Shown here in pieces: positions 2,692 to 46,240 of a stretch of DNA of 64,000 nt. The notes under the pieces were generated by a model. The model was given only the letters and a program-made list of their open reading frames with translations. It ran no database searches and was not told the origin of the DNA. The position numbers and the translations under genes are program-made. Each line of letters begins with the position of its first letter. The first letter of the stretch is position 1. The DNA is from Octopus sinensis (lineage: Eukaryota): positions 175,584,001 through 175,648,000 of the forward strand of contig NC_042997.1 in NCBI RefSeq assembly GCF_006345805.1, given 5' to 3'.

Positions 2692-5600
2692 CTAAAGAAC
2701 AAAAAGAAAAATATGCTTATCTTTCATTTGAAAAAAAAATTTGAGGTTTACATCTTTGGTTTTAATGGAATAGCTTTTCAAACAATTTTGTTTCAGTTTG
2801 TCATCAGGTAAGATTTAGTCCCTTATCTTTATTGCACATAGAGATTTCATACTTTCATCCACTATGTTATGGACAGTATAAAGTAAATGTTTTAAAAGTA
2901 AATGATATCAAATGCTTTTTTCTTTCCTCCTAATTAAATAAATTCAGTATAATAATTCAACTCTTTGGTATTCAAATTACTCTGTCAAATGTAATACATA
3001 TTCATTCACATTAGTTTGAATTAATCATGCATTATCTTGTAGCTTTGAGATTTCAGTGATGCAATTGCTAATGTTTGAATAACACAGTTACGTATAGGTA
3101 GGCAACCAAATTTGGCCAATTTCAACATAAAACAGGTAGAAAATTTGGGACCAGAAAAGGCTGGTTTAAATGCTAAAGGGTTAAACTAAAATCATGTTAA
3201 ATATAACACACTCGAGAGCCAAAATTAAGTGTATCTGAAACACTAAAGCAAGATTTAAAGTACTAATGGTATTTATTCTTTATAAAAATTTATTTTTTAC
3301 ACTTAAATGTTTTATAATGTAATGGTTGAGCAATCTCCTACAGACAAAACCAACGTTAATTTCAAAAGCTTAATTCACTAAAACAGCATCTGGTAGTACA
3401 GATAACAAGACTTAAATTCTATTTCAAAATGCAACTGCTAAAAGAAAAATGTAAAATGAAAATACCTGCGAGATTCCAATATTCGATACCATCTTTGGAT
3501 CTTGATGGCACTAGATCTCTGTGTTAAAAAGCATCTACGTTCCAGCTTCATCCGTACAATTGATTGTAAAAAGACTGTTGAGGTTTTAAGACTACAATAA
3601 TTCTTCCTTTCAATCTCCATTTGAATACAAGCTCGGTACCATTGCTGAATTTTAATTACAGAAGACTTTGTTCTTTTGAAATGTCTTTCTTGAATTGTTC
3701 TTCGTAGGTGAGATTGTATTGTTATTACAGAAGCTCTAACCTTTAAATAATCTTCTCTAGCCAGTTTCATTGCAATGAGAGACTGAAACCACTGTTGAAT
3801 AACTCGGATAGCCACTTGCTTTGATAAGTAGCTTTTTCGTTCTGCTCTCATACTTGAAGTAGCTCTCCACCACTCTTGCAGTTTGACAGCACACTGTTTT
3901 TGTTTATTAAACTTCTTCTGCTCTCTATAGCACCGATATACTGACTGGATCTTTATAACAGCCATTCGATATTCTATGTATCTTTGATGATCACTTCGCA
4001 TTAAAATAACAGCACGATACCAATTCTGAATTTTCAAGGCACTATCTTTAAGTTCAAGAAATTTCTTCTGCTGTTGCCAGCTACGAACATGTGATTGCAT
4101 TTTGATAGTATATGTCTTAAGGGAGAGATAATAGGCTCTATCAGATTTTGCTACTTTACAAGCCCTAAACCAATTTTGCAGTAAAACAACACTTTCTTTT
4201 TGTTTGCAGAATTTTTGTCTTGTTAAGAATTGCCGGACATGTGCTTGAATTGTGGTGACAGCAATTCTTTTTTGCAGAAATTGTTGACGGCAGATTTTCA
4301 TACTTCTCAGAGCTCGAAACCTAGCTTGAAGAATCTTGGTATATTTTTTAAGTTCCAAATAATCCTTATGGCATTGTCTCATTTGACTGATAGATCTGTA
4401 CCATTGTTGAATTACAATAGCAGCATTTTTGCAATTTAAATACTTTTTCTGTTGTTGTTTTGCTCTAACTAAAGCCTGCATTCTAATAATTGTTCTTTTT
4501 TCAGCTTGAAACTTAGTTTTAGCCAAATAAGCACGCCAACGGCACTGAATAATTACAGCAGAGTGGCATTTTAATTGTAACTCTCTTCGAACTTGACTGC
4601 CCCGAAACAAGGCTTGTATCAAGGTAACAAAAGCAATTATATTATTGTATCTTCTTCTGGCAATAAATCCTCGTAGATTGCTTTGGATCTTTATGGCAGC
4701 ATTCTTCTGGGCAATAAAATCATGGCGAACACGTTTCCCAATCAAATAAGCAGACATGTACTGCTGCAGAACACAAGTAGCAGTTTTCAATTTGGAGAAC
4801 TCTTTTTGAGCTACATAACATTTCCATGTGGCCTGTATCAGTTGTGCTGCATTGTTTTGTCTTTTTTCTTCTTGAAGTTGTTTCTCTCGCAATTCCTGAA
4901 GAAACTGCATCCGAAGTTTTCTACTTTCAAGTTTGGATCTGTAGAGTTTCTGAATTAAAATTACAGATGAAAGTAACTTTAAGTATCTGGATTGGCAATA
5001 ATGCTTCCTGAAGCTTGACTGAATAACTACAGCAGCTGCCATTTGATTTTTCAACAATTGGCGCTGCATTACACCACGCCACATAGATTGGATTTGTATA
5101 CAAGCCTGCTTTTCTTTCAAGAATTTGTTCCGTTGTTTTCTGCACAAGATAATACCTTGTACCATCGTTGTATCTGGGTTGTTGACCTGCAGAGGGAACG
5201 ATAGTTTTGACGTTCTTGATGCATTCTTACTGCTGCTTGTAAAACACGGATAGCCTCGAGCTGTTTGTGGTACTTTCTCTGCTGGGAATACATACGGTAA
5301 AAGCTCTGTAGAACTATGACAGCACTTTTCATTCTTTGGTAATCTGAGGCAACACGGTAGCTTTCTTGACGATTCCTGTACCATCTTTGAATTACAATGG
5401 CACACTGTTGTTCAAGAACACCCCTAGACACATCTAAAATGTTTGGTCTTGAATCTCCTGCATCAATCTACAAAAACAAATTTTTGAAAAATTAAAATCA
5501 TTACATGATCCTTTTTTAAATGATTTATAACAGTCATCAATAAGGTTTCTAAGAAAATCTGCATTCTTTATTAAAATTTTCTCTTTCAATTTTTAGCACT

Positions 5601-8600
5601 ATGATATTCAAATTCTTGGAAAAGATATTATGCAGTTTTATTATATCACCAATACAATCTTTAGTGAAACTATTGCCTATGTTTCTGTTAAATGTAGTGT
5701 TTTGCTCAACAAAACACCAATAGCTGTATTGGTAATAAGCTTGGAATCTTTACCATATAATCACTGTAACTTTGAACCTTGGAAATGACCATCATTAAAC
5801 ATCCATGTTCCATGTTAACATGGGTTGGACAATTTGACAGAATCCATCAGGTTCAATATCTGCATCTTGTGGTTTACTTTGGCATGGTTTCTATGGCTGG
5901 ATACTCTTCCTGATGCCAACCACTTTACAATAAGTAATGGGTGCTTTTTTTCAAAGCACTAAGGCCACCATACAGTTTACTAGACTAAGATCCTCTTTAG
6001 CTGAGTAGAGCTTATGCAAGGAGGTGAGTGTTAAAATAGGAGGGAAGTGGCCAAAATAACACAGGTTGCTTCCTGTAAAGGAGCTACAGGGCTACTTGCA
6101 TTATTGAAGAGAGGGTGAGAGCGACTAGGAAGAGTTAAAAGAATAAGGGGTCATAGTGAACCCTTAAGTTATAAGGCAAGTAGGAGTGGAGGCAAGTAGA
6201 AGTGAGTGACAGGAGAACAAAGTGTAGATGAGTAGACAGTGCAAAAGTGTACAAAGAATAAAAGATGGTTAAAGATGGAGAATGGGTGAAGAGCTGAATA
6301 TAATTAACTGTTGAGGGACAAGTAGGGATGGTAGGAAAGAGCAGGTGACAAATGTAGAGATTAGGTAAGATTGAGGGGTGGATGCTGTGAATGGTGACTG
6401 GGAACGTGACCAATGCTGCAAGTTGGGGAGCAAAAGGAGAGTAAGAGATGACTGACAGTAGAGAAAAAGTGGCGATTAGATCATTACTATGTTGGCTTTA
6501 GTTCCACATATCACATGGAAAACAAAAATTCTAAGATTTCATTTGGATATGAAGCAGCAACAAGCTAAAATCCATAATTTATCAAAAGAACATAAAACAA
6601 AACCAGACAGGAGGAAAAAAATAAACTTTAAAAAAACTTAAATGCTATATTTACCTGATTCTGAAGTATCAAACTCTTTTCTTCAAAGTCCATATCAGAA
6701 TGTGGTTGGAGACTTGTATTGATTTTACTGGAGTTCAGCACCTGGGTACCATCAGCACTGTCACTTTCATTACATTCAATCTGTGACAGGTGTTTGCTAT
6801 CATATTTAGAGGAAGAAAGTCTTTCATAATCAACTATTCTGGAATTGTTGGCATCTGTTATAATATTGGCAGTAGAACTAGCAGAGCTGCCTTTCTGATC
6901 ATCACCATTAGAAACCATTGAGAAATCTTGGTCACAATGAGAAAATTCATCCTGAAGATCACAGTGTCCATCAGCAGGACAGTCAGCTGATAGATCATGG
7001 TGACCATCAGTGGAGCCATTTTGTAGACCACGGTCACCGTCAGTGGAGTCATTTAGCAGAAGAACACGGTCACCATCGGCGCAGTCATTTTGCAGAGGAA
7101 CATGGTCACCATCAGCGGAGTCATTTTGCAGAGGAACACAGTTACCGTCGGCAGAGTCACATTGCAGAAGAACACAGTTACCGTCAGCGGAGTCATTTTG
7201 CAAAAGAACACGATTACCATCGGCAGAGTCATTTTGCAAAAGAACACGGTCACCATCAGTGGAGTCATTTTGCAGAACACGGTCACCAACAGTGGAGTCA
7301 TTTTGCAGACGAACACAGTCACCGTCAGCGGAGTCATTTTGCAAAAGAACACGGTCACCGTCAGTGGAGTCATTTCGCAGGACATGGTCACCGACAGCAG
7401 AGTCATTTCGCAGAACATGGTCACCATCAGTGGAGTCATTTTGCAGGACATGGTCACCGACAGCAGAGTCATTTAGCAGGACATGGTCACCGACAGCAGA
7501 GTCATTTCGCAGAACATGGTCACCGACAGCAGAGTCATTTCGCAGAACATGGTCACCGACAGCAGAGTCATTTCGCAGAACATGGTCACCGACAGCAGAG
7601 TCATTTCGCAGAACATGGTCACCGACAGCAGAGTCATTTCGCAGAACATGGTCACCGACAGCAGAGTCATTTCGCAGAACATGGTCACCGACAGCAGAGT
7701 CATTTCGCAGCAGAACATGGTCACCATCAGTGGAGTCATTTTGCAGGACATGGTCACCGACAGCAGAGTCATTTCGCAGGACATGGTCACCGACAGCAGA
7801 GTCATTTCGCAGAACATGGTCACCGACAGCAGAGTCATTTCGCAGAACATGGTCACCGACAGCAGAGTCATTTCGCAGAACATGGTCACCGACAGCAGAG
7901 TCATTTCGCAGAACATGGTCACCGACAGCAGAGTCATTTCGCAGAACATGGTCACCGACAGCAGAGTCATTTCGCAGAACATGGTCACCGACAGCAGAGT
8001 CATTTCGCAGAACATGGTCACCGACAGCAGAGTCATTTCGCAGAACATGGTCACCGACAGCAGAGTCATTTCGCAGAACATGGTCACCGACAGCAGAGTC
8101 ATTTCGCAGAACATGGTCACCGACAGCAGAGTCATTTCGCAGAACATGGTCACCGAAAGCGGAGTCATTTTGCAAAAGAACACGGTTGCCATCAGTGGAG
8201 TCATTTTGCAAAAGAACACGGTCACCGTCAGTGGAGTCATTTTGCAGGACATGGTCACCGACAGCAGAGTCATTTCGCAGAACATGGTCACCGAAAGCGG
8301 AGTCATTTTGCAGAAGAACACGGTTGCCATCAGCGGAGTCATTTTGCAAAAGAACACGGTCACCGTCAGTGGAGTCATTTTGCAGAACATGGTCACCGAC
8401 AGCAGAGTCATTTCTCAGAACATGGTCACCGACAGCAGAGTCATTTCGCAGAACATGGTCACCGACAGCGGAGTCATTTTGCAGAAGAACATGGTTACCA
8501 TCGGTGTAGTCATTTTGCAGAAGAACATGGTCACTGTCAGTGGAGGCAGTTTGCAGAAGAACATGGTCACCATCAGTGGAGTCATTTTGCAGAACACGGT

Positions 8601-11600
8601 TACAGTCAGTGGAGTCATTTTGCAGATCACGGTGACCATCAGTGGAGTCATCTAGCAGATCACGGTGGCTGTTAGTAGAGTCATCTAGCAGACCACGGTG
8701 GCTGTCGGTGGAGTCATTTTGCATGTTATGTTCATGGTAACAGTCAAGGTTATTTTGTAGATCACAGTGACCATCAGTGGGGTCATCTAGCTGACCACAA
8801 TTTTCAGCATAAGCATCTGGCTGATCACAGTGCTTGTTTGTGGTGTCTTTTTTCAAGTCACAATGGACTTTGTTGATTTTTGCTCTCTTCAGAAATTTAC
8901 CAGAATCATCCAGAGTACTAAGATGTTCCAATTCATTCAAAGTCGAAGTCTCTAATCTACTTCTAATCTCAGTTGTGCTGTTTGCTTCACTTTCGTTAAT
9001 GTTAGCTTTATCATTGAGATCTATATTTCTATCTGGTGTACCATCATTCAAGTTCTGATTATGCTCCAAATATTTATTGGGACTACAAACAGATTGTTGT
9101 TTAGAGATTGCTTGCACTCCAATATATTCAGTCACTATCTCATCTCCAGATTTCTCAACACTGCAAATGTTGCTTTGAACACCATTATCAATATCTATAG
9201 TCTGATTTAAGAGACGGGAATGGTGAGGTTTATTGTTATTGTTAATCTCAAAAGTGCCATTAAGGGGATTATTGAAATCTTCATGCTCAAATTCAATAGT
9301 TTGATTCAATTTTGATGTTTTTAAATTGATACATCCCTCTCTGGCATTCCGGTTTTCTTGCTTCTGTTGGCCAAGATCATTTGAATCATTTACTTTACGA
9401 ATGACTAAGTTGAGTGGTGAGTTATTGGTTTCTGCATCTCTTTGATAGTTGTTCCCGTCAGAAACTAAATCCAGACATGAAACTTCTGCTATTGTGTCCA
9501 AATTACACTTTGGCAAGTAACTGTGCTCAGTATTATTGTGTTTCTGATCACACTGGAATGGTGAAAGAGCCAAATTTTTATTTGAGTGTTCTACCAATGA
9601 ACTAGTCTTGTCGTATGATCCAACTTGGGGAGAAAGGACTTGTATTTTATTTATTGTATTACATTGCCATTGGGTTACCACTGCAGATTTACTCTTCATC
9701 TAAACCAAATAAAATTAAAAATAAAGCCAACTATTAGCAAAAGAAATGTTAAAAATATTTATTTGAAAATTTGGAAGGAAAAATTACATGATATACGTTC
9801 ATTCAAGCATAAATACTTACCCTCTGTAGCCTCTGCTTCTTGCGCCAGAGATATTTCCGCCAGGCCATTTGGATAACAATAGCCGCTCTTGCTTCATGTC
9901 TTATTTCAAGTAAACGTATGGCAAGGTAAGTAATATAGGTGATCACTACTTTCTCATCTGGTATAGTATTGGACATGTCCGAGTGACGCAACATAGCTGG
10001 TACACCACCAATAGCACTCACCTAAAATACATAAATACTTATTAAATATAAAATATCTGCAACTTTATGTAGTAACAATATTTTCATTAATCAACACAAT
10101 ATTTTCGTTAAATATTAGCAAAATTTACAAAAAATAATTTCAAACTAACAGTTTCAATCAGTTAACTTGCCTTGCTCTCAAGAGTGAGAGCAGCGTAACT
10201 GCTAAGACAAATTTAATGACAAGCCTTATGTCAAAAGTTACAATCAAATGCTTATTTCAAAATTAAAACCCTTCAAACATAATTTTTAGTGTACCATGAG
10301 AAGAGAATTGTTTCAAGTAGCACTCTCACTCCTACTGTATATTTTGGGACTACTGAACTACAAGTCTCTAAATTGTGATTAGCTGACTTCATGTTAAGCT
10401 TCAACTCAAAATCTCAAGTACCCTACCCCATGTCTTGCCATTTGAACTTGGTCTTTAACTTAGTAAAGGTTATCTGAGTTACATGTAGCCTTACCATAAA
10501 ACCTCAAATAGAAGAAAAAAAAAAGTCACAACTTACTTTTTTAGCAATAAGTTTAAAATTTTCGGCTTCATTAGCTAAAAGAGCTTCATAAATTTTAGGT
10601 TTCCCTGTTTCTGAAACAAATTTTATAAAAACAAATATAATTTCTTTTTGATAAAGTAACTCAGTATACAGAAACAGAAATATTGGTGATGTGTCCAAGT
10701 ACATGAATAAGTAACAGTACAATGCAGTAAACCAAACTTACTAGGGCTAAACCGAGTGCTGAAAGTGAGTTCATCCAAACTCTGATCACTGTCTTGTTGT
10801 TGATTTTCACATTCATTGATGTAAGTTACTGTTGTGTCCCGTTTGATTTCAGACAGTGGCAGCAATCCAGGATAATAATGATGAATTAGATAACACAAAA
10901 CACGTCCATCAGAGAAGGATACTGTAAAATTCTCAATCTGAAATTTGCAAGGAAAGCAAATAAAAAAAAAGTTATAATGAAAGTAAATGAAAAATAGAAT
11001 TAGACTCAAGTATTTCACATATCAGAATGTAAAAGTTACTTTGTTACTCCCGAGAAAAAGATTAGTCTTGTATAACAACTTCTACATAGATGAACTTAAT
11101 CTGCTCAACCATCACAAATACAATTCAAATTGGAACAAGTTTCTACAGAAATTCTATTTTGACAAATTTGTTTATTAAATTAAAATCTAATTTGCTTAAT
11201 CAATTTATCGTTTTCTTTTGACATATGAAATAATTGAAGCAATTGTTCTACAGTATCAAGACAACTACCTACTAGATAATTACCTCCTAATAATTATTAA
11301 ATATTGTAAATATAGTCCACAGATTTCAGTTTTAGTGGCGATATAATATAAATCTTATTGGATAACAGCTAAAACTATTTGGTTTCATAAGAATTTATTA
11401 GCACCCCAATAGTTGCACTTTTAATTTTCTCTTAATTTGGATGACTTACCCAGGGCAAATATCCGAAGGTAATTGTCTTATGGGGGTGGGGACAATTATA
11501 AAAAGATTTTATAACCCTCCGGCCACAATGAAGAACTAACACAATGCAATATCTTAAGGTTTGTTCTCCAGACAATATGATAATTTCACAGTATGAGATG

Positions 11601-15100: not shown

Positions 15101-18100
15101 AAAAGAGGGCCAAAATAAAAGTAATCCAAAACAGAAAACAATGATTCATGCAACAATATTGAATAAAGTACAGATTTGTTTTAACATCAATGACAAAAAA
15201 TATATTAAGCTTAAATTTCCGGAGGAAAGGTTTCAAATCATTTATAAACTTAGACAGCTATAACCCTATAATCCACTAAGGATACATCATTGCATACAAA
15301 ATTGTTACAAAATTTCATCTTAACCTGATCATCCCCAGCCTATACAATTTTAGAATTATTTTTTAAAACCATAAACAAGTAACTATATATACATTAATTC
15401 AATTTGAACATTAAAAAAAAACTGTATCCATTACCACCTTCTGCAAGGAAAGGAGATATACACAAAACTGGATTTGCTGATTCTTTGAGATCAAAATGAA
15501 ATACTCAAAGAGGTTCCCAACAGTGGTACTTTTTAAACAAGTTGAGTCATAGATAGATCCCTCAAATGAGATTTAATTATTTCATTTTGAAATTATTTCT
15601 AATTCTAAATACATAACAGAATTACCTGAAAACCAGTCACAATTCTCCAAAGAAGAGTCAATGTTTTTTCTCTGTGTCCATCTACAATATCCTTAGCACA
15701 TATTGAACCTGAAATATCAAATATTTCAGAATTAAAGATTTCTCAAGAATTTATGAAGAATTGGAAACAAGAAAAGGAATGAAATGAAATTAAAGTCTCC
15801 ATTAAAAGATTTCATGTCAATCTACTCAAAGAAAAAATAAAAGCTAAGTTACCTTTAGCAAGGCTTAGGTCCATTCCATTGTTCAATAAAGCTTTCAGCA
15901 CTTTGTTAACATTGTGGATCTTCTGCAGACGACTAATTGCAGGGGCACGAAGGGAGTCGGTGAGTTCCCATTTACCTGTGAGTATTTCTATAACTCGACT
16001 AAACAAAGAAAAAATATTCTGACATTACTGTTTTGTACATCCATCTGCCACATGCCCAAAATAATAATGCTTTATTTTAATATATAATGTATATAATATA
16101 ATGAAATTATTGTATACAGTGCTCAGGTGCACCACAACTTGTCAAAAAGTGCGTATAAAGTATATGCAGTAATGTACAAATGTCTGGAAAGTGAACGGTG
16201 CATGAGTCAGATACATGCTTGTGTGTGTATGGAGGGGAGAAAATCAGGTGTAGTGTTGGCGAATCTCAGAAAGCATGGAAGTTTTGAAGGATGCAGTGCT
16301 CCAACAACTAACAACTGATGCCGGCAGTTTGTTCCATGCTTCAGCAACTCTTAGCATGAAAAAATGTTTCCTAAAGTCATGGGAGCTGTGCTGTTTTCTG
16401 ACTTTGTAAACATGTCCACGGGTGTTAGACGGGTGAAGTTTGAAAAGGCGCTCAGAGTTATTGTTTGTAAGATGGTTAATAGTTTTATGGGTGTCTGCCA
16501 AGTCAGCTGCCAGACATCGGAGTTTCAATGTGTCCATGCCCAGGGAAGTAAGGCGTTCAGAATATGGCAAATGCCTGATGGAGAGTATTCTCTTGGTTGC
16601 ACGTCACTGAACGGCTTCCAGATGATTAATATCCTGGGCAAGATAGTGGTTCCAGACCGGTGATGCAAATTCCAGGTGAGGTCTTACCATAGCTATATAA
16701 AGCCGCAGGGTCAATTATGTAACAGCAAGGTATTTTCAAGCCGACCTATGTCTTATTAAATTTGGTAGACAGAAACTGCAAGATGCTTGTCATGTGTATG
16801 TGAGTGGTGTGGGTGTTCATATTCTACACTTGTAACCACTTGGGTGAAGTGTTGACATTCCTTTTGACATTATGATCAGTCACTGTACACTTGGAGACTT
16901 TTAGAATAAAGTATCCCTTATTTGCGAAGCAGATAAGGGCTGGAAATGAAGATCAACTTATCTGGAAACTTCCATCATAAAAATAACTCCTCATGCAACC
17001 AAAGTTAGCATAGAAAAAATGGATGTTAAATGAACAAGCACATGAAAGGATTCAATTGAAAACTTACCTTAGAAGGGTAAAAATATAAATAACAGTTGAA
17101 CACGGCTTAAATCCATCATAGCCAGTTTCAAATAGGATTGAAAAAAATGGAAGAGTGAGAAGCATAGGATTAGCAGCCCTGCACAATCAGTTCTCTACAC
17201 TGCTGCAGAAATGCCAATAAGAGAACATGAAAACTGGTGCTAGTAAGGCAAGACAGCCCTCAGAGACTACATATGAAGCAATGTAATGGAAGCACAAACT
17301 GGATTTACCTGTAATTTGGCATTATACTATGATGATTGAGAAAGAAAAAAGAGGTTCTAGATCTCAATCCAAAATTAGTTAAAATGCTAAAAACTTTAAA
17401 TGATTTCTCATACTGGAAGGAGATATAACATTATCAATACAGGATTGATAGATACTGATAGAAGTGATGTTAAGCCTCAAAGATTTGAACTTAGAAGAAT
17501 GATAAATCTAAACACTTCAAAAGCATTTTGTTTAAATGTTAACAATTCTGCCAGCTCAATATCTCAACAAAAATAGGTGTAGCTGTGTGGCTAAAAGGTT
17601 CACTTTGCAATGGAGTTTCAGTTTCAATCCTCCTATACAACACCATGGGCAATATCTTTCTTCAGTCGACCAAAGCTTTGTCAATGAAATTGAGTTATAT
17701 GGAAACTGTAAAAACCTGTCAGAGACACCATTCTTATGGTGGTAGGCTTAATTTGATGCTTGGTTTAACCCTTTAGCATTCAGATTATTCTATCTAATGT
17801 AATATTTATCCATATTGCTTTAACCTAATCATGCATTATTTCATAGCTTCAAGATTTCAACGTTATCACCTATTTTTAGAATGACATTATAGGTTGGTGT
17901 GAGATACCAAATCTAGGCAGTTTTAACATAAAATATTATTTGGGCCGGATGTGGCCAGTTTACCCTAAAGGGTTAATATCTCCACCACTACCACCGCCTG
18001 GTCCTAAGGTGTTTAACAAAATCAACTATTGCAAGCATTAGAGCCAGGCCTCCAGCTGGAGAATAATGTTCTGTCCCATGCCTGTACCCTTTTTCCTCTG

Positions 18101-24271: not shown

Positions 24272-27200
24272 ATATGTTTGTGTATCTGTGTTTGTCCCTC
24301 TAGCATTGCTTGACAACCGATGCTGGTGTGTTTACGTCCCCATCACTTAGCGGTTCGGCAAAAGAGACTGATAGAATAAGTACTGGGCTTACAAAGAATA
24401 AGTCCCGGGGTCGATTTGCTCGACTAAAGTCGGTGCTCCAGCATGGCTGCAGTCAAATGACTGAAACAAGTAAAAAAAAAAAAAATATGTACGTACGTAT
24501 GCATGCATGCATGCCTGTATGTATGTTGTATGTATTTAGATAAGTGTGTAGACGTGTCTGTACATGTGAACACACCTAAATACTCATGTACATACATAAG
24601 TGCATATGCAGATACGTGCATATGTATGTACATGCATGCGTACATACTACATAGAAAGACACTGAGTTTTAATACCACCAGCAGTAATTTCAATTGGCTT
24701 AGCTGTATGGCAATTTTAAGTTAAAATTCCATTGTCAAAACATTTTTTAATAGGTTTCTGCAAAAATTGTTACAAGTCAATGAAACTTACCAGTTTTTTC
24801 TCTCTTGCCTAAAATCAGTCTGCTCTGGGCCACAGCTGGCTTCTTGGGAGACAAAACCGATCTTCTCTTCATTTCTGTAAAGAAATGGGTGCAATTATTT
24901 ACAGCCATATTATAATAGGAGTTAGATGCGTGGGGTGAGTGGGCTGGAATTGTGGGGATACCATATTGCAGATCTAGCCTCATTGTGCAAAATAAAAAAT
25001 TCAAATGACTAGGGTGAGGCTTCATAGCAAATTACAAAACAATGAAATAAAAGGAAAAATACAATTCTTCTATTTGTTTCAGTAATAGGACTGTGGCCAT
25101 GCTGTTGATTTGTTCAACTAAAACAGTTTAGAGGGTTTAGTCAAGTGGTTCACAACCCTTTTTTGCCAATGAACCCCTTTAATTCCCATTTTGCTCTACT
25201 AGACCCTAATAAGCATTGGAGGTTTAAAAAAAGTCCTCTTATATTTTGATATTAGAATTATAAAAAAAAAAAGTTAAATAATTTGTGTACTGTAGAAGTA
25301 TAACCAGTTATATGCACTAATTTTAACAATTTTATATTCCATTTGTCTCTTTTGCCAAACTGCTAAGTCAAAGGGATGTGAACAAACCAACACTGCTTGT
25401 CAAGAAGTGTGGTGAGCTAACACAGACATGTATATACAAAGGGAATCCATACAGTGTCCATTAACCAAATTCACTCAAAAGGTATAGTCAACCCAGGACT
25501 AAAGTAGAATACATTTGCCCAAGGTGCAACACATGGAACTGAACCAAAACCCATGTGGTTACGAAACAAGTTTCTTAACCACACATCCATGAGTGCACCT
25601 AAACAGAAATCCCATACAAATACAAATTACAAGTTTGTCAAATTACCCAAAATTTAAGCTTAGAAACCCAAAAAATATGAATCTAAGTACTCCAAAAACG
25701 GTTTTGAATATTTCACATGAACAAGCTAATTTTCTGCCAGAGAGACAATTACAAAAATTAAGAAAATGCCATTTAAATCAAACCCCACCACCTCAAGAAA
25801 AAAAGATTTCATCTTCAGACAAAAATATTTCAACTCTGATACTGGTGCCACATTAAAAGCCCCCAGTACACTCTAGAGTCTATGTCTTCCCAATAGCGAC
25901 ATATGATGTGAGACCTGGACACTAAAGAAAGCTGACCAGAAGAGAATTAATGCATTCGAGCTTTGGTGTTGGAGAAGACTTTTACAGATTCCATGGACAG
26001 CGAGGCTCACCAATGGAGAAGTTCTTAAGCAGATCAGGCCGAAAATGTCGCTAGAAGCTAGGATCACCAAGCATAGATTGGCATATTTCGATCATATTAT
26101 GCGGAGAAAATCCCTGGAGAAGGACATCATGCTCGGAATGGTCAGTGGCAAGAGAGGAAGAGGCCGACCAAGAATCCGCTGGCTTGACACCATCAAGAGT
26201 GATACCAGAATGGACATAGCCAATCTGAAAAAAGCAGCCCAGGATAGAACTGACTGGAGGAGACTGATCCAACGAGTAACCGAGAGTCGACTTCGACTGA
26301 GCGGATAGATAGATACACTCTAGAGTGGTTGGCATTAGGAAGGCCATCCAGTCATAGAGACCATGTCTGAACTGACAATGATACCTAGTATGGCCCCCTG
26401 GCCTTACCACCTCCTATCAAACCATCCAACCCACGCATGTAAAATAGATGTATGATGATGAATAACATATAAACTTTTACAAAATGCTAATATAATATGC
26501 AGCACACTCGAAAGAAGCTTACACAACTAAGGTGGTGTAAGAAGGCAGCAAAATGGTATATTGTTAAAGCATCAGAATGCTTTGCAAAATTTGTTCTGAT
26601 TATATTCAGAGTTCAAATCCAAGTCAACTTTGCCTGTCATCCTTTTGGTCGTTCATCATCATCATCGTTTAACATCTGCTTTCCATGCTAGCATGGGTTG
26701 GACGATTTTGACTGAAGGCTGGCGAACCAGATGGCTGCACCAGGCTCCAATCTTGATCTGGCAGAGTTTCTACAGCTGGATGCCTTTCCTAATGCCAACC
26801 ACTCTGAGAGTGTAGTGGGTGCTTTTTACATGCCACCAGCATGGGGACCAGTCAGGCAGTACTGGCAACGATGTCACTCGAATCTTTTTACACATGCCAC
26901 CGGCACAGGTGCCAGTAAGGCGCTCTGGCAACGATCACGCTCGGATGGTGCTCTTAGCACCCTACTAGCACGGGCACAAGTGCCAGTAAGGCAACATTGG
27001 TAACGATCACACTAGAACGGTGCCTTTTATGTGCCACTGGCATGGAAGCTGGTTAGCCGCTCTGTCAATGATCACACTCATATGGTGCTCTTTGCACCCT
27101 GCTAGCACGTATGCCAGTCATCGAATTTGATTTTGATCTGGAATGAAGCATGGATTCTCATAAATTATCTTAGATACCCAACAATATATTAGTTCATTTC

Positions 27201-30200
27201 TGAGCTAAGAAATTATATAACCAGTGGTCTGCTATTGCTAAAAAGGTAGCCATGAACAAAATCAATTAGAACAGAAGCTATTAAAATGTGATAGGCTTTT
27301 AGATGAGATTTTATAAGTAGCTTCTAAAAAATGAATAGAGAGTAGATAGAAACAGAGTTTTATAAGCATATCGCTCACCTATAGATGATTCTTTAGTAAA
27401 TCAATGTAATTGAATACTGTAAACTCAAACCTATTAATCATTAATTACAATGCAAATAGAGACCATTATGTATATGTTGGTTAATATCCTGTTTGACATG
27501 GTCATTACACAACTGTTATTTGGAACTTAACAAAACTGCCATTGAAAAAGATGAAATCTGAACTAATGCCAACATTGGTAGTTGCTAACTAGCCAAAAGA
27601 AAAGCAGTTGTCAAAGAGAGAGACTGCAATTTATTTTGATTGGAAACTAATGATTTCTAATATAAGTACAAGTATAAAAATTTGAGAGGAAACAATTATA
27701 TCAACCCCAATACTTCATTGGTACTTATTTTATGGGTCCCAAAATAATCTAAATGAAAGTGGACTTTGGCAGGATTTGATGTCAGAACATGACCTGCAAC
27801 TAATGCCAATTCATTGAATAATAAACATTTTAAGACAATAATAAAGCTCAGATCTGTGGTAGCATAGAACACTATTAGCTAATATAAATAGGATTAAAAA
27901 ATTATGCAATTAAAAATTTGATTAATTGCCTTTTTAAATTCAGTGTTAAGTTCAACATTCACTTTTGTTGAACTGGTTTACAAGGATATGTTCAAACTGC
28001 TCATTAACACCCAATACTTATCCCGTTACGATCCTGTGGGATGACATCAGCAGCTGGGGAGCTGACTGGAACTTGGGGATGACTGGAAGAGGAAGGGGCA
28101 GGAGTGACACGCGCGCAGGCAGGGGAGCATTGGGCCTTTTCGATCTGGGTAGCCAACAGAGCTGGATGTGAGTGCTTTGTCAAGGTAGGAGAAAAGCAGC
28201 TGCTATTTCGAGCATTCGGGTCAGGCCACATGGAAGGGTGCATTACCGCTGGAGAGTTCTGCATCGACGAAGAGAAGGTAGGTGTCCTTATTTCAAATCT
28301 CTCGCATACACCACAGATCCTACAAGGGAATCTATGTAGTCACACTATCAGCTGGAAATAGCAGTCGAACCATAACCTTCCCACACCATAAAAAAATGAT
28401 GGTCATACTCGTTGGTGTAGTTTCATCATCATCATTTAACATCTGCCTTCCATGCTGGCATGGGTGAGACAGTTTGACAGGAGCTGGCCAGGCAGAAGCC
28501 TGCACCAGACTTCTGTGATTGTTTTGGCATGATTTTTACAGCTGGATGCCCTTCCTAACACCAACTACCCATGGCTATATATATATATAAAGCACCATTC
28601 GAGTGTGATCTTTATCTGCGTTGCCTTACTGGCACTTGTACTGGTGGTATGTGAAAAAACATTCGAGTGAGGTCGTTGCCAGTGCCGCTGGACTGGCTCC
28701 TGTGCAGGTGGCACATAAAAAGAACCATTTGAGCGTGGCCTTTGCTAGTACCGCCTGATTGGCCCTCGTGCCGTAAAAGCACCCACTACACTCTCGGAGT
28801 GGTGGCGTTAGGAAGGGCATCCAGCTGTAGAAACTCTGCCAGATCAGATTGGAGTCTGGTGCAGCCATCTGGTTCGCCTGACCTCAATCAAATCGTCCAA
28901 CCCATGCTAGCATGGAAAGCAGACGTTAAACGATGATGATGATGATTATATATATACATAGGCGTAGAAGTGGCTGTGTGGTAAGTAGCTTGCTTACCAA
29001 CCACATGGTTCCGGGTACAGGCCCACTGCGTGGCACCTTGGGCAAGTGTCTACTATAGCCTCTGGCTGACCAAAGCCTTGTGAGTGGATTTGGTAGACGG
29101 AAACTGAAAGAAACCCGTCGTGTATATATATATATATATATATATACACACGTCTCTTTTGCCGAACCGCTAAGTGACGGGGATGTAAACACACCAGCAT
29201 CGGTTGTCAAGCAATGCTAGGGGGACAAACACAGACACACAAACATACATACATATATATATATATACATATATACGACAGGCTTCTTTCAGTTTCCACC
29301 TACCAAATCCACTCACAAGGCATTGGTCGACCCGGGGCTATAGCAGAAGACACTTGCCCAAGGTGCCATGCAGTGGGACTGAACCCAGAACCATGTGGTT
29401 GTTTAGCAAGCTACTTACCACACAGCCACTCAAAGTACTGAACTCAGTTTTACTAAAACTTTTAAAAAGGTCCCAGGATGGATGTTGTACAATGATTGAA
29501 ACAAGTCGTACTTCTTCCATGCTGGGATGTAGAACAAACAAACAAAAAAATAAGTGTCTGCTTGATCAGAGCTGATCTGAAGTTATATAAGCACATGTGT
29601 GGCTGTGTTAAGATACTCGCTTGCAACCACATGGTCTCAGGTTCAGTCCCACTGCATAACACTTTGGGCAAGTGTCTTCTACTATAGACCTAGACTGACC
29701 AATGCTTTGCGAGTGAATTAGGTATGTGGAAGCCTATCATACACGTGTGTGTGTGTCCTCCAACCACTGCTTGACAACTGGTATTGCTTCATTTATATCC
29801 AACTAACTTAGCAGTTAAGCAAATGAGTAATAGAATAATAATAATGAGTAGTGGGGGTCAATTTGTTTAACCCTTCAGGAGAGCGCTCCAACATGGCCAC
29901 AGTCCAATAACAAAGAGAAAAAAGATATAAAAAAAAGGAAACTCACGAGTTTTCTCCTTTTCACAAGGAGCCTTCTCTGTACTTTGTGTAACTCTTTTAG
30001 CAGTTCTCACTTTAGAACTCAATGATACTCTGTCATTCCTCGGAGTAGCATTGGCTCTGATAACTTTACAGTTCACAGGAACTTTCTGCACAGAAGTTGG
30101 CATCTTCTCCCAACAAAATAGACTCTTTTTCTTCAGTACTCCAGCTTTACAGATAATCTTCGGTTCTTTGATAACATGCGTGGATCTTCTAGAAATAGAT

Positions 30201-33200
30201 GTATCTTCTACTGAAATCATAGGAGTTTGATGAAGATCGTAAATAATTTCTGAATTGGGAGAGGAGTACCTGCTATTCAAGGAGTCTGAAGATAAACCAT
30301 TGTCAGATTTAGGAGATGCTTGTTGTTTTTCAATGAGATTTGATTCAGAGGGGTGTCCAAGCTGAGAAAGCATTTCGAGTTTTGTATTATCTTCTTTATC
30401 TTCCCTTTGGTGCACATCTTGAAAATCACTACCTGGCAACAGTAAGTTTGATCTGTTAGGACAAGCAGAAGTCTGGTGGTGACTTTCAATGGGAGAACTT
30501 GTCAGGAGGAAATTTGTTTGAATAGGGCTCACACTGTTAATGCTGAGGGTTGTATTTTTAACAGAATTATCATAGACATGATAAGGAGGAGATAGTTGTG
30601 GTGGAGAAAAAGAAGTTACCACTGGTAAGGAACCACTTGAAGTGGGAGATTTTTTTAATTTGTTTTTCCAGCTCCGCCTTTTTTGTTTTTTTACCAAATA
30701 AGTTTCCCGACGGGGACTCTGTTTACAAAATGATGGCCCAGTGACTTCATCTGCCATCTGCTTTTGGCGCTTGGTTGTGACATAACTGTGTTGATATTCA
30801 TTTGCATTTTCAGCACTTTCTACAGTTACATTCCTCACACATGTTAATACTTCCACCGCATTGTCAATTTCTATAGTTTTGTTTTCTGGCGAGTCTTCAT
30901 AGGGCACACAGCTAACATTCTTAGAGATGGATGAAATTTCCTGTACTGAACACTCAGTTTTTAATTCCAAATTTGTAGTGACATTCTTACAAGAAACAGA
31001 ATCATTTTTCTTGCAAGAGTAATTCTTGACAGTACACTGATTTGGTGAAATTCTCTTCTTTGTAACCATCTTGGTAGAAACTGGTACTGTATTTTCTCGA
31101 TTGGAAATTGTCTTGCTCTGAGTTCGTTTGGAGGAAACAGTCTTATACTGAATCTCTGTTGAGTTGTAAGACTTTATATTTGTCAAATTTGGTGTATGTA
31201 GAACAGAGAATGGCGTTTTTACACACGACATGATTCCCCTGACCTGAAAGAAAAATGCAGGTTCATTACCTAACAATAACTCAAAACCATGCAACATTAT
31301 ATAGTAGATTACACAAATTACAGTTTATGAAGGTGACAGAGTTTACTAACCAAAAGGTCAACATTCAATAACTTGCTAATGGTGCTATAATTTATCCAGG
31401 GTTCAAGCCTATAGCAGCCAGTGCCTTAGCCTATCAAGAAGTAAATAAATACAGCTGCTTATTCCAAGACTACCAAATAATGAACACTTCAGTAACTAGT
31501 AGTACTGGAGTCAAGTTATTTCTCCATGTTGATAAAGGGTATCTCAAAACCACTTCAGCATAAACTTTAGAAGCAACAGTCACCAGAAATTGAAATTTCC
31601 CCACCAAATCTTGTAGCAGCTCTGCCACATGCAAAGAGACAAGACTTATATTCTTATGGATAAACGAATACACTGCACAGTGTAATATTATAATCAAAAC
31701 AAACAGCAGTAATCACATGGAACAATCTTTTAAGAACCAAAAATCCAACACACTAACTCGAACTGTGGAACTAGCACAATGATTTTATTAAAACCACAGG
31801 AGTTAAACAAAGAGGGGACAATACACGGGGAAAATAGGGGTCGGGGACTAGTTGGATGAGATTACATATAGTGAATAAAAACAATTGCAAATGAAAATGT
31901 AAGAATGAATGAACACGGAATGGGTTTGACCCCACCAACCATATTCCGTTCACTTCGCCCCCCCCCCCCCTCCTCGCTTAATTAGGAATTTACATACCCA
32001 ACAGTCAGACTACTTTCTTCCATTTTTTTGTACTTTTTGATGTCAGGCATTTCTTCTCCAGACATGCTTTCCCTCTTAGGTGATATAAAAAGAGGTTAAC
32101 CAAAGCACACCCGGAGACAAAGGTGCTTGATGCAATACCTCCTCCATGCACCTTCCAAATCACCTCTTTCACAGAATTTCTCTTTTAGAGAAGACGGCAG
32201 AATGATCTTAATAATCAACTCGGCCAACAGTTGTACTCTACCCAGCTGTGATAATACCCATTAGGTAGAAACCCACAGGTCAAAGAGACTCGGATACTGC
32301 ACAATTGCATACAGAACAGTTTTGTTGCTCTGCCTGCAACATGGGCATGTAGGCAAATCCATGACTTCATGCTTCATGAGTTTATCCTGAACTGACAAGG
32401 AACTTCAGAAGCACAGCCAAGGCAGGGGCCCCTGGAAGTTGTCCATAGGTCCTGGGCCGAAAGTGTTTGGCAAGCCAACTTTCCTTGAAACCCAGAGTCT
32501 CCCCCCCAGGCTGCCATCACACTTGCCCTCTACTGCCCATCTATAGTAAGCCGAGATGGTAACCCCTCTGCTGGCATTGCTCATTCAGGAGAGAAGCATG
32601 AGCGCTTGTTGACACTTGATGAAAGTCAGTATGTCAGGAACACTGTAACATGCAAATACTTCATCTAAGAACTTTATAGTTGCCTTAGAGATGGGTTTAT
32701 AGCACCTGCAAACTTCTGGCCACTTAGTGCAGCTATCTACTACAATTGGGTAGTATGCACCGTTTACCAGTCCAGCATAGTCAATGTGTAACCTAGACCA
32801 CGGGTTCTCCAGCTCTGGCCATGATTGATATTTTACTGGTGGGGCTTTGGCTGCAAGTGCACAACCTCAACATGTTCTCACCAAGTTTTTGATATCTCTG
32901 TCCATAGATGGCCAATAGACATAATTCATCATAACCTTCATCCTTGCCATTCCTGGATGTCCGCTGTGAAATTGTTGCAATACACCTTTTGTAATGTAGT
33001 TGGAGCCACCATCAGAATATTGTCGCAAATTGAGAAACTACTGGTATCTGAACTTTTGTTTATGTTTTAAAGCTTCATTTATTTTCATAATCTACTCATC
33101 ACTTACAGCTTTCATTCTTATATCCTGTGCCATCACTGGTAGTTATTGGATAACATTCGTCATAACACTTACTTTCACTTTCTGCCTGCAGGGTGGCTAT

Positions 33201-35564: not shown

Positions 35565-38500
35565 ACCAAACATGGGTGTTTGATTGAGAAGTTCGCTTCA
35601 CAATCGCATGACTCCATGTTCAGTCCCACTGCACGGCACCCTGTGCAAGTGTCAACTAACTCTGGGCCAAGCAAAACTTTATAAGTAGATTGAAAAAGCC
35701 CATCGTGTGTTCGTAAATCTGCATGTGTGTACATGTGCACGAGTGCATGCGTCAGTGATTGTTTGCACCTTCAGATTGCTTATTAGAAAGTCACGATGCT
35801 CGCGTGGTATTCTTGTCAGTGTTTCTCCAGCCCCTCAAAGTTGCTCCTATTCATATACTGCTGGCTCCGATCAGGAGAGAGTGCACGACATATGCGCAAA
35901 CACGTAGGAGCGAGCATCAGTAGTTCCAACCTTTTCACTAGCAAGGGCCCCTATTATCTTAGTAGGCCACCAGATACAGACTCCAACTTAGGGGTATATA
36001 TTATAGCCATATTATACAATAATTAGGAATAACGCAACGCTTTCTCTATCCTCAAAACTGACATTTGCCGACACCAACCTATACAAAAACCTAGTTATCT
36101 TACTTTTGACATAAAGAGCATTAAACACCTAACACCGTCAGTAAGAAAAGTTAGGTGGAAGTGTGGCTTTATCAAGCTTTAGACAAAATCATTTGCCTTC
36201 CTACTTGCCAAGCAAGTTTGTGACAATGATACGGACGTTAGTTGACTGGTGAAAGGCTCCACCCTCTTTTATATATATTTTTTAAAGTATTCTAAATTGA
36301 TAAAAGAGTACTCTCCCTTGCCTAAAGGTTTAACGGTTTACTTTTGTAATTGCTCATTTGAACCTATCGCATTCTCAAATGGTTGAATATATTTACAGGT
36401 TTTGCAATTTTATAAACAAATTGGTTTCAAATTAAAATAAACTTATGAACTTTCAGAGACTGGAGAAAGAGCAGTTTTTAATTTTGCCACAAGGCCAGCA
36501 ATTTTAAGGGGGAAGGGGTGAATCGATTACATCGATCTCTGTTCAAATGCTACTTTATTTTAACGAGCCCGAAAGGATTAAAAGATGAAGTTGACCTCGG
36601 CAGAATCTGAACCCAGAACATAAAGAGCAGGCTGCTGTGACAGAGAATTTGAAGTAATTAAGAGGAACACAGTTTTAAGACATTAGATAACTGTTCCCCA
36701 GTAAAAGAAAGGATTTAACTAAGCCATCATAAAGGAAGGTTTCCAACAAATAAAGTAATGTTTACAAAAAACTACTATATGAAGTTAGAGTATACAAGAA
36801 ATTCTAAAATATTACATAAACTGTCCAACTACAAATCTTTCAAATTACAAAATCCCAGTTAATATTCAACACCCCAAAAGAAACTAAAAACTAGGCTTTG
36901 TATGCGCTTTCTAGTTTCCAGTGTCCTGTGAAAGTTTATCTGGTTAAGAGCAGGTGTTTTCTCGGGCAGATAGTATTAGTTATTACAACTGACAAACGTA
37001 TCTAATTTCTTCAAACAATCGTTTAAATTCATATCTAGTGAGTCTTTGGCGCATACTTAATCCTTAATACTTCAGTGCGGAGAAAATGAAACTGAATGAG
37101 TTTTCAATAATGAAAGTTGATGCTTATTTGACTCAGTCACTCCATTACAAAGTCTTCCTCCGTAGGTTGTAACTCCAGTTGTATGCAATGCAGGCAAAAT
37201 ATTATAAAACGACCAGTATATTTTTAACTATTTCAGTAAAACCTAAATAGTTTTGCGACAAGTAAGCTCGCTTTTTATGCTGCACTGATTTGCTTCTTGC
37301 AAGATGTAACATGAACACGTCTAATGGTAACTAATCAACGAACTTTATTAATCCTTTTGGACTGTTTCGACAGAGACAAAACACCAGGGCTTTTCGCTAA
37401 AACCCAAGAAGCGGACTAGGCAGAGACAAAAACGCCAGGGCCTTTCGCTAAAACCCAAGAAGCGGACTAGGCAGAGACAAAAACGCCAGGGCCTTTCGCT
37501 AAAACCCAAGAAGCGGACTAGGCAGAGACAAAAACGCCAGGGCCTTTCGCTAAAACCCAAGAAGCGGACTAGGCAGAGACAAAAACGCCAGGGCTTTTCG
37601 CTAAAACCCAAGAAGCGGACTAGGCAGAGACAATAACGCCAGGGCCTTTCGCTAAAACCCAAGAAGCGGACTAGGCAGAGACAAAAACGCCAGGGCCTTT
37701 CGCTAAAACCCAAGAAGCGGACTAGGCAGAGACAAAAACGCCAGGGCTTTTCGCTAAAACCCAAGAAGCGGTCTAGGCAGAGACAAAAAACACCAGGACC
37801 TTTTGCTTACTGCATAGGACTACAGTTATAGTTAACTTGAGCAAACAATTGAAAAAAAAAAAGTTGGGAGTGGGTGTGAAGGGGCTTTACCTTTGCTTGA
37901 TAAACCTATTTTATTATCAGTACTCGCAAAATCTGTTCGGCCTTGCAAAGAATTTCAAAATAGATTAAATTTTAGCAATTTATTTTAATTCAGTATTCTT
38001 CCTCGTAGAAGATATGCAGTAGAAGACTGGTTAAATGGGTAGGGGTGGATGGTTACCAACTAGCGAGCCAGGTGATAATTAAGGTGGGGTTTGAAAATGT
38101 AAATAACGAACACGTAGCTGATGTTGAATCTAAAATTCGACCGAAAGACAAACCAAAGCACTTAGATGCGTCTTTATTTTCGAAGTCTTACACGAGTTAT
38201 TCATTTGCCAACCATGCAAACCAATGTATGCATTCCAAATTAACATTAATTAAAATGGAAATAACTATTCTAAAAACTAATAAGACAAATTTTTGAATAA
38301 CAAAAGAAACTTTCATTATCACAATATGAAAAAAGCAAAAGGGAAAAGCTTACCGCAACTTTTTTCTGTCTAGGAACTACAGCAGTTCCATAGAGGACAG
38401 CTTGTAGCCGATAAGATTCGTCAATAAAGAAAAGAATCATCTGCCGACAGCCCCCTTCACGCTCAGGTGTCCAAGAGATATTCAAAGACAATGTTGATTC

Positions 38501-38788
38501 AGCTGGTACTTCGAAGTCCATTAACTCCATTTCAAAATGTTCGTCATGTGGAAATTTCTCGACGTGAACAAACTGGTCGAATTCATGGGGGTTTGTAACC
38601 AGTAACTTTCGATGTATTGTTTTGCCTACTTTAACTTTGCCGAAGCTAATTGTCGGTTTCTTCGTGAAATGCGTCAATAATAAAGTTTCTTCTCTAGCAA
38701 TATCTGCATTTGCAACAGGAGAATTGTCATTCCAAGACTTCCGAGATTTTCTCCTACGAGGACTGCTAGAAACAGAAGAATCCATCAT
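2610..38788 (-). CDS. ASPM: Abnormal spindle-like microcephaly-associated protein homolog; 18 coding exons in window, 3' end lies beyond the left edge
   Basis: Spliced translation gives an N-terminal ASH domain, the conserved '[34 protein letters not shown]' block, CH1, CH2 and a long IQ array. Splice phases are consistent at all junctions apart from one internal frameshift near 5155. Confidence 0.96.
3466..5467 (-). CDS. ASPM: ASPM exon 17, large IQ-repeat exon (about 25-30 IQ motifs) with an apparent 1-nt frameshift near 5155
   Basis: Repeated IQxxxRxxxxR motifs at about 23-aa spacing run across two overlapping ORFs (5117-5431 and 3438-5405). Acceptor ttgtag|ATT, donor CAG|GTATTT. Confidence 0.92.
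6655..9699 (-). CDS. ASPM: ASPM exon 16 (probable): 1015-codon Asp/Asn/Ser-rich exon with 11/12-aa tandem repeats
   Basis: Acceptor ttggtttag|ATG lies 121 nt after exon 15; donor CAG|GTAAAT. The exon is 3045 nt, stop-free and phase 0 to 0, and includes about 1.2 kb of open non-repetitive sequence. Confidence 0.75.
6990..8780. repeat. Coding minisatellite of 33/36-bp units (about 50), most homogeneous in the centre
   Basis: Unit gcagaacatggtcaccgacagcagagtcatttc encodes [11 protein letters not shown] on the minus strand; 36-bp variants encode [12 protein letters not shown]. Confidence 0.97.
9821..10021 (-). CDS. ASPM: ASPM exon 15 (end of CH2 plus first IQ motif)
   Basis: [38 protein letters not shown]...[12 protein letters not shown]; donor AGG|GTAAGT. 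Confidence 0.95.
10537..10610 (-). CDS. ASPM: ASPM exon 14
   Basis: [25 protein letters not shown]; phase 1 to 0; donor AAA|GTAAGT. Confidence 0.9.
10742..10937 (-). CDS. ASPM: ASPM exon 13 (CH2)
   Basis: [27 protein letters not shown]...; donor CTA|GTAAGT. Confidence 0.95.
11912..12372 (+). mobile_element. tRNA-derived CORE-type SINE with internal (TA)/(TG) tract; other copies at about 1-275(-), 20010-20380, 21045-21385, 24061-24480, 28961-29125, 29151-29431(-), 29598-29920, 55600-56010, 61409-61815
   Basis: A/B-box-like head (tggctgtgtggtaag...ggttcagtccc) and an 'accttgggcaagt' CORE-like block; many near-identical copies within the window. Confidence 0.88.
13716..13935 (+). mobile_element. 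tRNA-derived SINE with Nin/Deu-like central domain; copies at about 50035-50265(-), 50572-50790(-), 51330-51485(-), 52757-52990(-), 53757-54165(+, partial dimer)
   Basis: B-box gagttcaaattcc followed by gcctttcatcctttcggggtcgataaattaagtacc; multiple copies. Confidence 0.82.
14007..14107 (-). CDS. ASPM: ASPM exon 12 (start of CH2)
   Basis: ...[22 protein letters not shown]; phase 1 to 0. Confidence 0.92.
14986..15097 (-). CDS. ASPM: ASPM exon 11
   Basis: [24 protein letters not shown]...; acceptor ttttcag|GTT, donor A|GTAAGT. Confidence 0.9.
15626..15708 (-). CDS. ASPM: ASPM exon 10 (end of CH1)
   Basis: [28 protein letters not shown]; canonical splice sites. Confidence 0.95.
15853..15998 (-). 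CDS. ASPM: ASPM exon 9 (CH1)
   Basis: [37 protein letters not shown]; phase 2 to 1. Confidence 0.95.
16090..16705 (-). mobile_element. CR1/L2-type LINE, 5'-truncated 3' fragment; the same tail recurs at about 40545-40620
   Basis: [22 protein letters not shown]...NTRGHVYKV...[17 protein letters not shown] is a typical CR1-clade ORF2 C-terminus. Confidence 0.85.
18137..18312 (-). CDS. ASPM: ASPM exon 8 (start of CH1)
   Basis: ASKDLL...[46 protein letters not shown]. Read by eye; not in the ORF track. Confidence 0.95.
19241..19371 (-). CDS. ASPM: ASPM exon 7 (ends at a non-canonical GC donor)
   Basis: [25 protein letters not shown]...[12 protein letters not shown]; donor AAG|GCAAGT. Confidence 0.92.
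20491..20632 (-). CDS. ASPM: ASPM exon 6
   Basis: MVFGEI...[27 protein letters not shown]; acceptor tacag|ATG, donor AAG|GTAGCT. Confidence 0.95.
21692..21993 (-). CDS. ASPM: ASPM exon 5
   Basis: ...[24 protein letters not shown]...[25 protein letters not shown]; phase 1 to 0. Confidence 0.95.
22649..22748. repeat. GC-rich 22-bp tandem repeat, about 4.5 copies
   Basis: gagagcatggcgggcgcagcca-like units. Confidence 0.85.
23140..23286 (-). CDS. ASPM: ASPM exon 4
   Basis: [38 protein letters not shown], an ASPM/Asp signature; canonical AG/GT. Confidence 0.95.
24791..24874 (-). CDS. ASPM: ASPM exon 3
   Basis: tttacag|AA ATG... [27 protein letters not shown]; donor CTG|GTAAGT; phase 1 to 1. 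Confidence 0.88.
25885..26315 (+). mobile_element. RTE-clade LINE 3' fragment
   Basis: [25 protein letters not shown] and [23 protein letters not shown]; short (GATA)n tail. Confidence 0.85.
29947..31243 (-). CDS. ASPM: ASPM exon 2 (Ser/Pro-rich low-complexity N-terminal region)
   Basis: Lies within the 476-aa ORF. Acceptor tttcag|GTC, donor CTC|GTGAGT; 1297 nt, phase 0 to 1, matching both neighbours. Confidence 0.88.
32600..33680 (-). mobile_element. Degenerate Ty3/Gypsy pol fragment (RNase H and integrase)
   Basis: [33 protein letters not shown] (RNase H); [10 protein letters not shown]...[12 protein letters not shown] (integrase) near 32720-32800. Confidence 0.85.
37371..37800. repeat. 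51-bp minisatellite, about 8.4 near-identical copies, in ASPM intron 1
   Basis: Unit cagagacaaaaacgccagggcctttcgctaaaacccaagaagcggactagg starts at 37371, 37421, 37472, 37523, 37574, 37625, 37676, 37727 and 37778. Confidence 0.97.
38354..38788 (-). CDS. ASPM: ASPM exon 1 (start codon, ASH domain)
   Basis: MMDSS...[21 protein letters not shown]...LNISWTP...QAVLYGTAV. Donor GCG|GTAAGC; 435 nt, phase 0. Confidence 0.92.
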
Positions 38789-45769: not shown

Positions 45770-46240
45770 ATCAAATTCGAGGACTGGCATCCGTGCTAGT
45801 GGAGCGCTAAAAGCACCATCCGAGCAGGATCGTTGCCAGAGCAGCTGACTGGCTTCTGTGCCAGTGACACATAAAAAGCACCATTCGAGCGTGATCGTTA
45901 CCAGCGGCGCCTTACTGGCAATTATGCTGGTGGTACATGAAAAAACATTCGAACAAGGTCGTTGCCAGTGCCGCTGGACTGGCTCCTGTGCAGGTGGCAC
46001 ATAAAAAGCACCATTGGAGCGTGGGCATTGCCAGTACCGCCTGACTGGCCCTCGTGCCGGTGGCACATAAAAGCACCCAACACACTCTGGGAGTAGTTGG
46101 CTTTAGGAAGGGCATCCAGCTGTAGAAACTCTGCCAGATCAGATTGGAGCATGGTGCAGCCATCTATTTCGCCAGTCCTCAGTCAGATCGTCCAACCCAT
46201 GCTAGCATGGACAGCGGACGTTAAATGATGATGATGATGA
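45770..46240 (+). mobile_element. SINE-like family with (ATG)n tail and internal ~55-bp subrepeats; copies at about 12966-13290(-), 23415-23735, 26653-27135(-), 28590-28945, 40925-41465(-), 48637-49070(-), 56985-57158(-), 63697-64000(-)
   Basis: Shared 'aggaagggcatccagctgtagaaac...ccaacccatgctagcatggaaagcggacgttaaacgatgatg' 3' end. Confidence 0.85.

Follow-up and report, generated by a model that had tools for sequence, protein, structure and literature searches.

The gene ASPM, the main human microcephaly gene, encodes a brain-size and cell-division protein whose number of IQ motifs has long been debated with regard to both brain size and spindle function. In Octopus sinensis this gene raises a question of its own. 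Within a stretch of 64,000 nt of contig NC_042997.1 (positions 175,584,001 to 175,648,000; hereafter the window), the ASPM gene, read on the minus strand, carries in its IQ region a very large open frame that encodes an acidic segment filled with short repeats. Is this frame part of the ASPM mRNA, what does it stand in for and does it have a function? The answer that we favour, with about even confidence, is that an acidic, disordered exon is spliced in, that it derives from the exon of the second IQ motif (IQ2) and takes the place of about 25 IQ motifs, and that it forms a flexible, phospho-regulated hinge between the head and the tail of the protein.

A spliced exon behind the first IQ motif

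The exon (the spacer exon) occupies positions 9699-6655 of the minus strand and comprises 3,045 nt, or 1,015 codons, with no stop. It is preceded by ...TTTGGTTTAG and followed by GTAAAT, with the acceptor AG at 9701-9700 and the donor GT at 6654-6653. The upstream exon ends at 9821, the downstream exon starts at 5467 and all of these boundaries are in phase 0. None of 5,000 base shuffles left either of the two non-repeat ends free of stops, so their open frame is not due to chance. A Pfam search of the exon gave just one match, below the cut-off. The product is acidic (18% D+E, net charge -108) and probably disordered, as the sequence-only reading had anticipated: FoldIndex is negative in nine of ten windows of the exon, residues 1-100 being borderline (+0.04), while a single-sequence structure model (predicted local distance difference test score of 30) is weak evidence and uninformative. 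That reading had placed the acidic repeat exon between CH2 and the IQ array. The exon itself holds, but it is not directly adjacent to CH2, as the first IQ motif (IQ1) precedes it.

Query words from the locus occur in 24 sequencing runs, 20 of which contain at least half of them, and seven runs (tissues not given) were used for contig alignment. Their records carry no RNA label; we treated them as RNA because GT-AG introns are removed in the contigs. The joint 9821>9699, with its GT-AG intron removed, is present in four of four runs from four studies, three of these runs also joining upstream exons, and the joint 6655>5467 is present in four of four runs from three studies. Five studies in total thus contain a spliced joint at either end of the exon, and a single 151-nt contig of depth 2 retains the 121-nt intron upstream of 9699. 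One 4,841-nt contig (run X13), recognised in both the upstream and the downstream alignment from its length and depth, extends from 9438 across a shortened array that keeps the frame and on to the IQ exons. Its array measures 417 nt, compared with 1,734 nt in the window, a difference divisible by 3; this is probably a short-read collapse and was not used as an allele length. A processed pseudogene was rejected as the origin of the spliced contigs, the exon having one genomic copy. The spacer exon is included in octopod ASPM mRNA. Transcripts do not always splice 9821 directly to 5467, and three octopod orthologue models keep the segment open, free of stops and frameshifts; together with the frame and the AG/GT ends, the contig joints bear out the stop-free, phase-0/0 exon that had been proposed from the letters.

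We may ask whether some tissues also leave the exon out and so make a short, canonical ASPM, as suggested by the sequence-only reading. The symmetric phase is what is expected of a cassette exon, and a human ASPM isoform without exon 18 is described in PMC10436222. Human exon 18 (isoform 2) resembles the octopus exon in being internal, very large and part of the IQ region; it encodes IQ motifs and is skipped, whereas nothing in the octopus exon scores as an IQ and the contigs show no skipping. Moreover, a UniRef model of O. bimaculoides (P0008) omits the exon and joins IQ1 to an in-frame site at 5404, 63 nt inside the IQ exon, the junction (AG at 5405) yielding normal IQ spacing. However, P0008 looks like a weak prediction and we weighed it as such, because several other IQ stretches present in all other models are missing from it too; the internal AG at 5404-5406 is unused among the joints listed from contigs. 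No 9821>5467 joint occurs among the joints listed at either end, in contigs whose assembly drops rare forms, against inclusion joints in four of four runs on each side. The complete table of loose ends has none at 9821 in four of four runs, contigs are continuous across 5467 in four of four runs (among the joints and loose ends listed) and all three O. vulgaris isoform models include the exon. Regular skipping comparable to that of human exon 18 is therefore unlikely; since contigs show presence and not absence, rare skipping is possible.

The same joints bear on whether the open frame might be an intronic repeat or an artefact of assembly. There is a likely one-base assembly error nearby, so the exact number of units may be off. 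Against this, the spliced joints at both ends come from five studies in all, three independent genomes carry the exon and it is single copy in this genome. We give an artefact almost no credence and consider it already refuted, the exact copy number excepted. The site is window position 5157, where one base is absent from the large IQ exon and the frame is shifted with respect to O. vulgaris ASPM. The base is present in four of four runs; its absence is likely to be an assembly error, which would break automatic annotation.

Octopod ASPM and its IQ motifs

The host gene is, as judged from its domains and homologues, an ordinary ASPM orthologue with a variant architecture. ASH, CH and IQ domains are found by Pfam in order on the exons that flank the spacer. 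The first coding exon (38351-38788; Pfam and model comparison) encodes the ASH domain (PF15780, E 2.8e-22, above the cut-off) and is followed by the exon for the N-terminal unstructured region (29945-31243; model comparison). Two CH2 exons (10940-10742 and 10610-10535, together 10535-10940; PF00307 and spliced contigs) precede the exon with the end of CH2 and IQ1 (9821-10019; Pfam, spliced contigs and model comparison). Downstream lie the large IQ exon with the missing base (3466-5467; PF00612, models and contigs) and a further IQ exon (2610-2691; spliced contigs). The last exons of the gene are outside the window, and the C-terminal domain was mapped in the octopod models. A query with the CH region (residues 880-1215) matched 1,169 proteins and, among those listed, all are named ASPM or unnamed. 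The octopus CH region shares about 50% identity with the ASPM of molluscs and vertebrates, and the order of ASH, two CH domains, IQ array and HEAT-like end is that of ASPM and Drosophila Asp. What differs is that the octopod IQ array is interrupted after IQ1 by an acidic segment of 500-1,015 aa.

Gene models with the spacer exon are already public for O. vulgaris (three models, CAI9716381.1-383.1; 904 aa), O. bimaculoides (XP_052827235.1; 500 aa) and Argonauta hians (GAB1599350.1; 764 aa). The first 330 residues of the exon are 99% identical to the O. vulgaris records. Our comparison set, the best 120 of the 1,169 CH-region matches, contains 116 non-octopod ASPMs, none of which has the exon. 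Directly after IQ1 the octopods have an IQ-free gap of 947, 543 and 803 aa, compared with at most 366 aa anywhere in the 116 others. The segment is thus restricted to octopods among the homologues seen and is common to Octopus and Argonauta. To that extent the proposed lineage specificity stands; no squid, cuttlefish or Nautilus ASPM appears among these best 120 matches or the 65 matches of a second search. An unnamed protein (P0029) groups with bivalves in a quick tree. Searches for distant relatives of the first 330 residues returned octopod matches only, with no usable match in the atlas, and derivation from a moved piece of the N-terminal unstructured region was rejected (best E 0.5 by BLAST and 0.23 by profile).

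IQ motifs were counted from CH2 to the C-terminal domain, the profile having been trained on those of molluscs, brachiopods and nemerteans (threshold 8). The octopods have 34, 34 and 33, compared with a median of 57 (16-71) in 26 lophotrochozoans, a set from which five rows were excluded (four without a mapped C-terminal domain and one unnamed) and in which the two lowest rows look partial. Yet the span from CH2 to the C-terminal (HEAT) domain is similar: 1,777, 1,395 and 1,650 aa in octopods and a median of 1,524 aa (391-1,768) in the others. The net charge of the tail is lower, at +54 to +110 compared with +235 to +363 in five chosen molluscs. With fewer IQs over a similar span, the spacer exon is better read as having replaced about 25 IQ motifs than as the addition in front of the array that had first been supposed.

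The start of the exon points to its likely origin. Residues 1-12 (9664-9699) are a degenerate IQ2 remnant, in keeping with the IQ-like segment noticed in the sequence-only reading: the first Q stands at +27 from the start of IQ1, in register with IQ2, a position that it shares with 110 of the 116 outgroup ASPMs, and the intron after IQ1 lies at the same residue as in the short genomic open reading frames of other animals. The segment scores only -5.0 to -2.0 and does not match the IQ core I/L-Q-x-x-W/F-R. From the Q in register and the conserved acceptor we infer that the spacer exon likely descends from an ancestral exon that began with IQ2.

Octopod ASPM differs elsewhere too. Its N-terminal unstructured region is about 460 aa long, compared with a median of 1,124 aa in 31 lophotrochozoans, and the protein lies on a long branch in a quick tree. 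An S-P-x-x-F-hydrophobic repeat is found in none of four octopod ASPM models, in 27 of 31 other lophotrochozoans and in 77 of 116 outgroups. These repeats are presumably the katanin-binding motif of ASPM. At about 589-654 of the window (minus strand) lies a candidate exon of 66 nt with AG/GT ends. It matches Cys-rich sequence in the models of O. bimaculoides and Argonauta, is absent from the O. vulgaris model P0002 and is possibly a small cassette exon.

The window also holds several repeats of other kinds. A degenerate GT/CA microsatellite of about 950 nt (953-1899) is intronic and gives rise to long, spurious Thr-His frames, and an intronic minisatellite at 37371-37807 has 8.6 copies of a 51-nt unit (96% match). 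Intronic repeats at 2981-3185 and 5878-5929 are matched by hundreds of unrelated transcript contigs. Upstream of the gene, related tandem units of 65-71 nt at 41189-41442, 45809-46077 and 48935-49056 are probably a dispersed repeat family. Short frames at 16244-16603, 25907-26308 and 60193-60540 look like the ends of elements with a long interspersed element (LINE) reverse transcriptase.

Repeat array, candidate sites and constraint

Coding tandem repeats of variable number are known in mucin-like and other disordered linkers. As in those, the octopus array consists of in-frame units whose copy number varies between close relatives; it differs in lying in a spindle protein and in being acidic and His-containing, not Pro/Thr-rich. 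The coding minisatellite of about 50 units of 33 or 36 nt (11 or 12 aa) spans 6992-8666, with a few degenerate units beyond each end. Tandem Repeats Finder gives 49.3 copies of a 33-nt unit and a script arrives at 50 units, of which 23 have one identical 11-residue sequence, in accordance with the roughly 50 repeats of the sequence-only reading. Unit markers are spaced by 33 nt (33 times), 36 nt (12 times) or 72 nt (twice), all multiples of 3. The octopod arrays have in common an 11-aa period and a D-S-T-D-G-type core.

The first part of the exon has a different character. Identity to Argonauta is 84% in the ASH domain, 57.5% in the N-terminal unstructured region, 92% in the CH region, 43% at the exon start, 32% at the exon end and 67% in the IQ region. 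Within the exon, 95 of the first 190 residues are identical and only 26 of the next 110. The best-conserved block, residues 62-75 (9475-9516), is identical to Argonauta at 13 of 14 positions and contains an LxxIxE consensus at residues 67-72 (9501-9484), a candidate docking site for PP2A-B56 that is found in the exon of all three species. The permutation p-value for such a 14-mer is 0.008 over 300 aa or 0.048 over the first 190, for a window picked after the alignment had been seen. Residues 94-100 (S-P-L-N-L-V-I; 9400-9420) are identical in three species and are, by the kinase consensus, a candidate cyclin-dependent kinase (CDK) site. Three L-N-x-T-hydrophobic motifs at residues 131, 146 and 164 (9190-9309), two of which, like the S-P block, are kept in Argonauta, are likewise by consensus candidate Plk1 sites.

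A docking site of this kind has precedents in the family. According to PMC12701367, an LxxIxE at 350-356 accounts for part of the binding of fly Asp to the B56 subunit Wdb, and human ASPM has a match at 3266-3271. The octopus candidate shares with the fly site the consensus and the protein family, in a setting that may likewise be disordered, and an acidic residue follows shortly after the motif in two of three octopod species. The positions differ, being N-terminal in fly, C-terminal in human and in the new exon after IQ1 in octopus. At the position matching the human site the octopods lack the final E, and the motif is matched in 52 of the 105 outgroups that were mapped; this loss may mean little because the site is in a probably folded domain. 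In the N-terminal region, L..I.E is absent from octopods and matched in 10 of 107 outgroups. The genome has two multi-exon B56 loci, on C3 and C20. Further B56 matches with internal stops on the small contigs C8901, C8694, C9495 and C9004 (genome G000; loci L003, L006, L009, L013 and L014) are possibly pseudogenes or foreign contigs.

How might such an exon work? In the hinge reading that we favour, a constitutive disordered hinge would link the microtubule-binding head to the calmodulin-binding tail. The functional sites would lie in the first 190 residues or so, held under moderate constraint, with the predicted LxxIxE docking PP2A-B56 close to the CDK-type and Plk1-type candidates. The 11-aa array would be a coding minisatellite older than the Octopus/Argonauta split, expanded separately in each and selected mainly for frame, perhaps for acidity, and not for length. 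Where other animals have a basic IQ stretch, an acidic tether would couple the head less tightly to the tail and could reduce binding along the microtubule lattice.

Several observations weigh against this hinge. The lost IQs cannot be assigned, as a repetitive array aligns in many registers. O. bimaculoides is without about 400-500 residues that are present in the vulgaris group, so length matters little. A match to L..I.E arises in 6-9% of exon shuffles, and the conserved 14-residue window was chosen post hoc in a comparison of just two independent lineages. Contig variants are six amino-acid-changing to two silent in the unique ends, compared with 12 to 12 in the IQ exon, a ratio that, with small numbers, argues for near-neutral drift and weak constraint overall. 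Finally, given the long branch and the changes elsewhere in octopod ASPM, the exon may be a sign of relaxed constraint.

Much of this also suits an exon that is constitutive and neutral, that is, a linker that is tolerated while it degenerates and has grown through minisatellite slippage, with only its frame under selection and its motif match due to chance. The exon length of 500-1,015 aa, the unit number of 50 here and 40 in O. vulgaris even though the two are close relatives, the different dominant units in each genus and the variant ratio all agree with it, and fly Asp manages with 24 IQs, compared with 60 in mouse and 81 in human (PMC10047693). On the other hand, the 50% identity to Argonauta in the first 190 residues is arranged in blocks and comes near to the 57.5% of the N-terminal unstructured region, and the D-S-T-D-G-type core and the acidity persist in all species. 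Neutrality is a tentative but serious possibility.

Brain size and the spindle pole

Could the spacer be an adaptation for the large cephalopod brain, as the sequence-only reading hinted? ASPM being a brain-size gene, and the segment being found in octopods only among the homologues examined, the idea suggests itself. However, in PMC4674283 brain size, but not pole focusing, is rescued by an N-terminal fly Asp fragment that lacks the IQ half, so that a change in the IQ region would more likely affect spindle poles than brain size. The fly LxxIxE mutant has weakened pole cohesion and no microcephaly (PMC12701367). The comparison includes no squid, cuttlefish or Nautilus ASPM, so the distribution of the segment gives no basis for a link to brain size. 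The link to a large brain is unsupported, and we consider such an adaptation very improbable.

The exon is present, unremarked, in public gene models, and no earlier description of the spacer was found in the literature searched, which leaves most subscription journals and supplements outside; one paper, PMC6341066, names ASPM as up-regulated in testis. A bolder proposal, which we regard as rather doubtful, is that octopods have remodelled their ASPM: an acidic tether with a newly gained PP2A-B56 site would have taken over the proximal half of the IQ rod, while the S-P-x-x-F repeats and the C-terminal LxxIxE were lost. If true, the invertebrates with the largest brains would have a differently regulated spindle-pole protein at work in their neural progenitors, and a phosphatase site would have arisen three times in this family, each time at another position. 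Although their brains are large, octopods have about 40% fewer IQs than other molluscs, with a predicted disordered, acidic spacer instead. They could thus serve as a natural experiment on two questions: does the IQ region have to form an unbroken rod, and is B56 docking important wherever in the protein it takes place?

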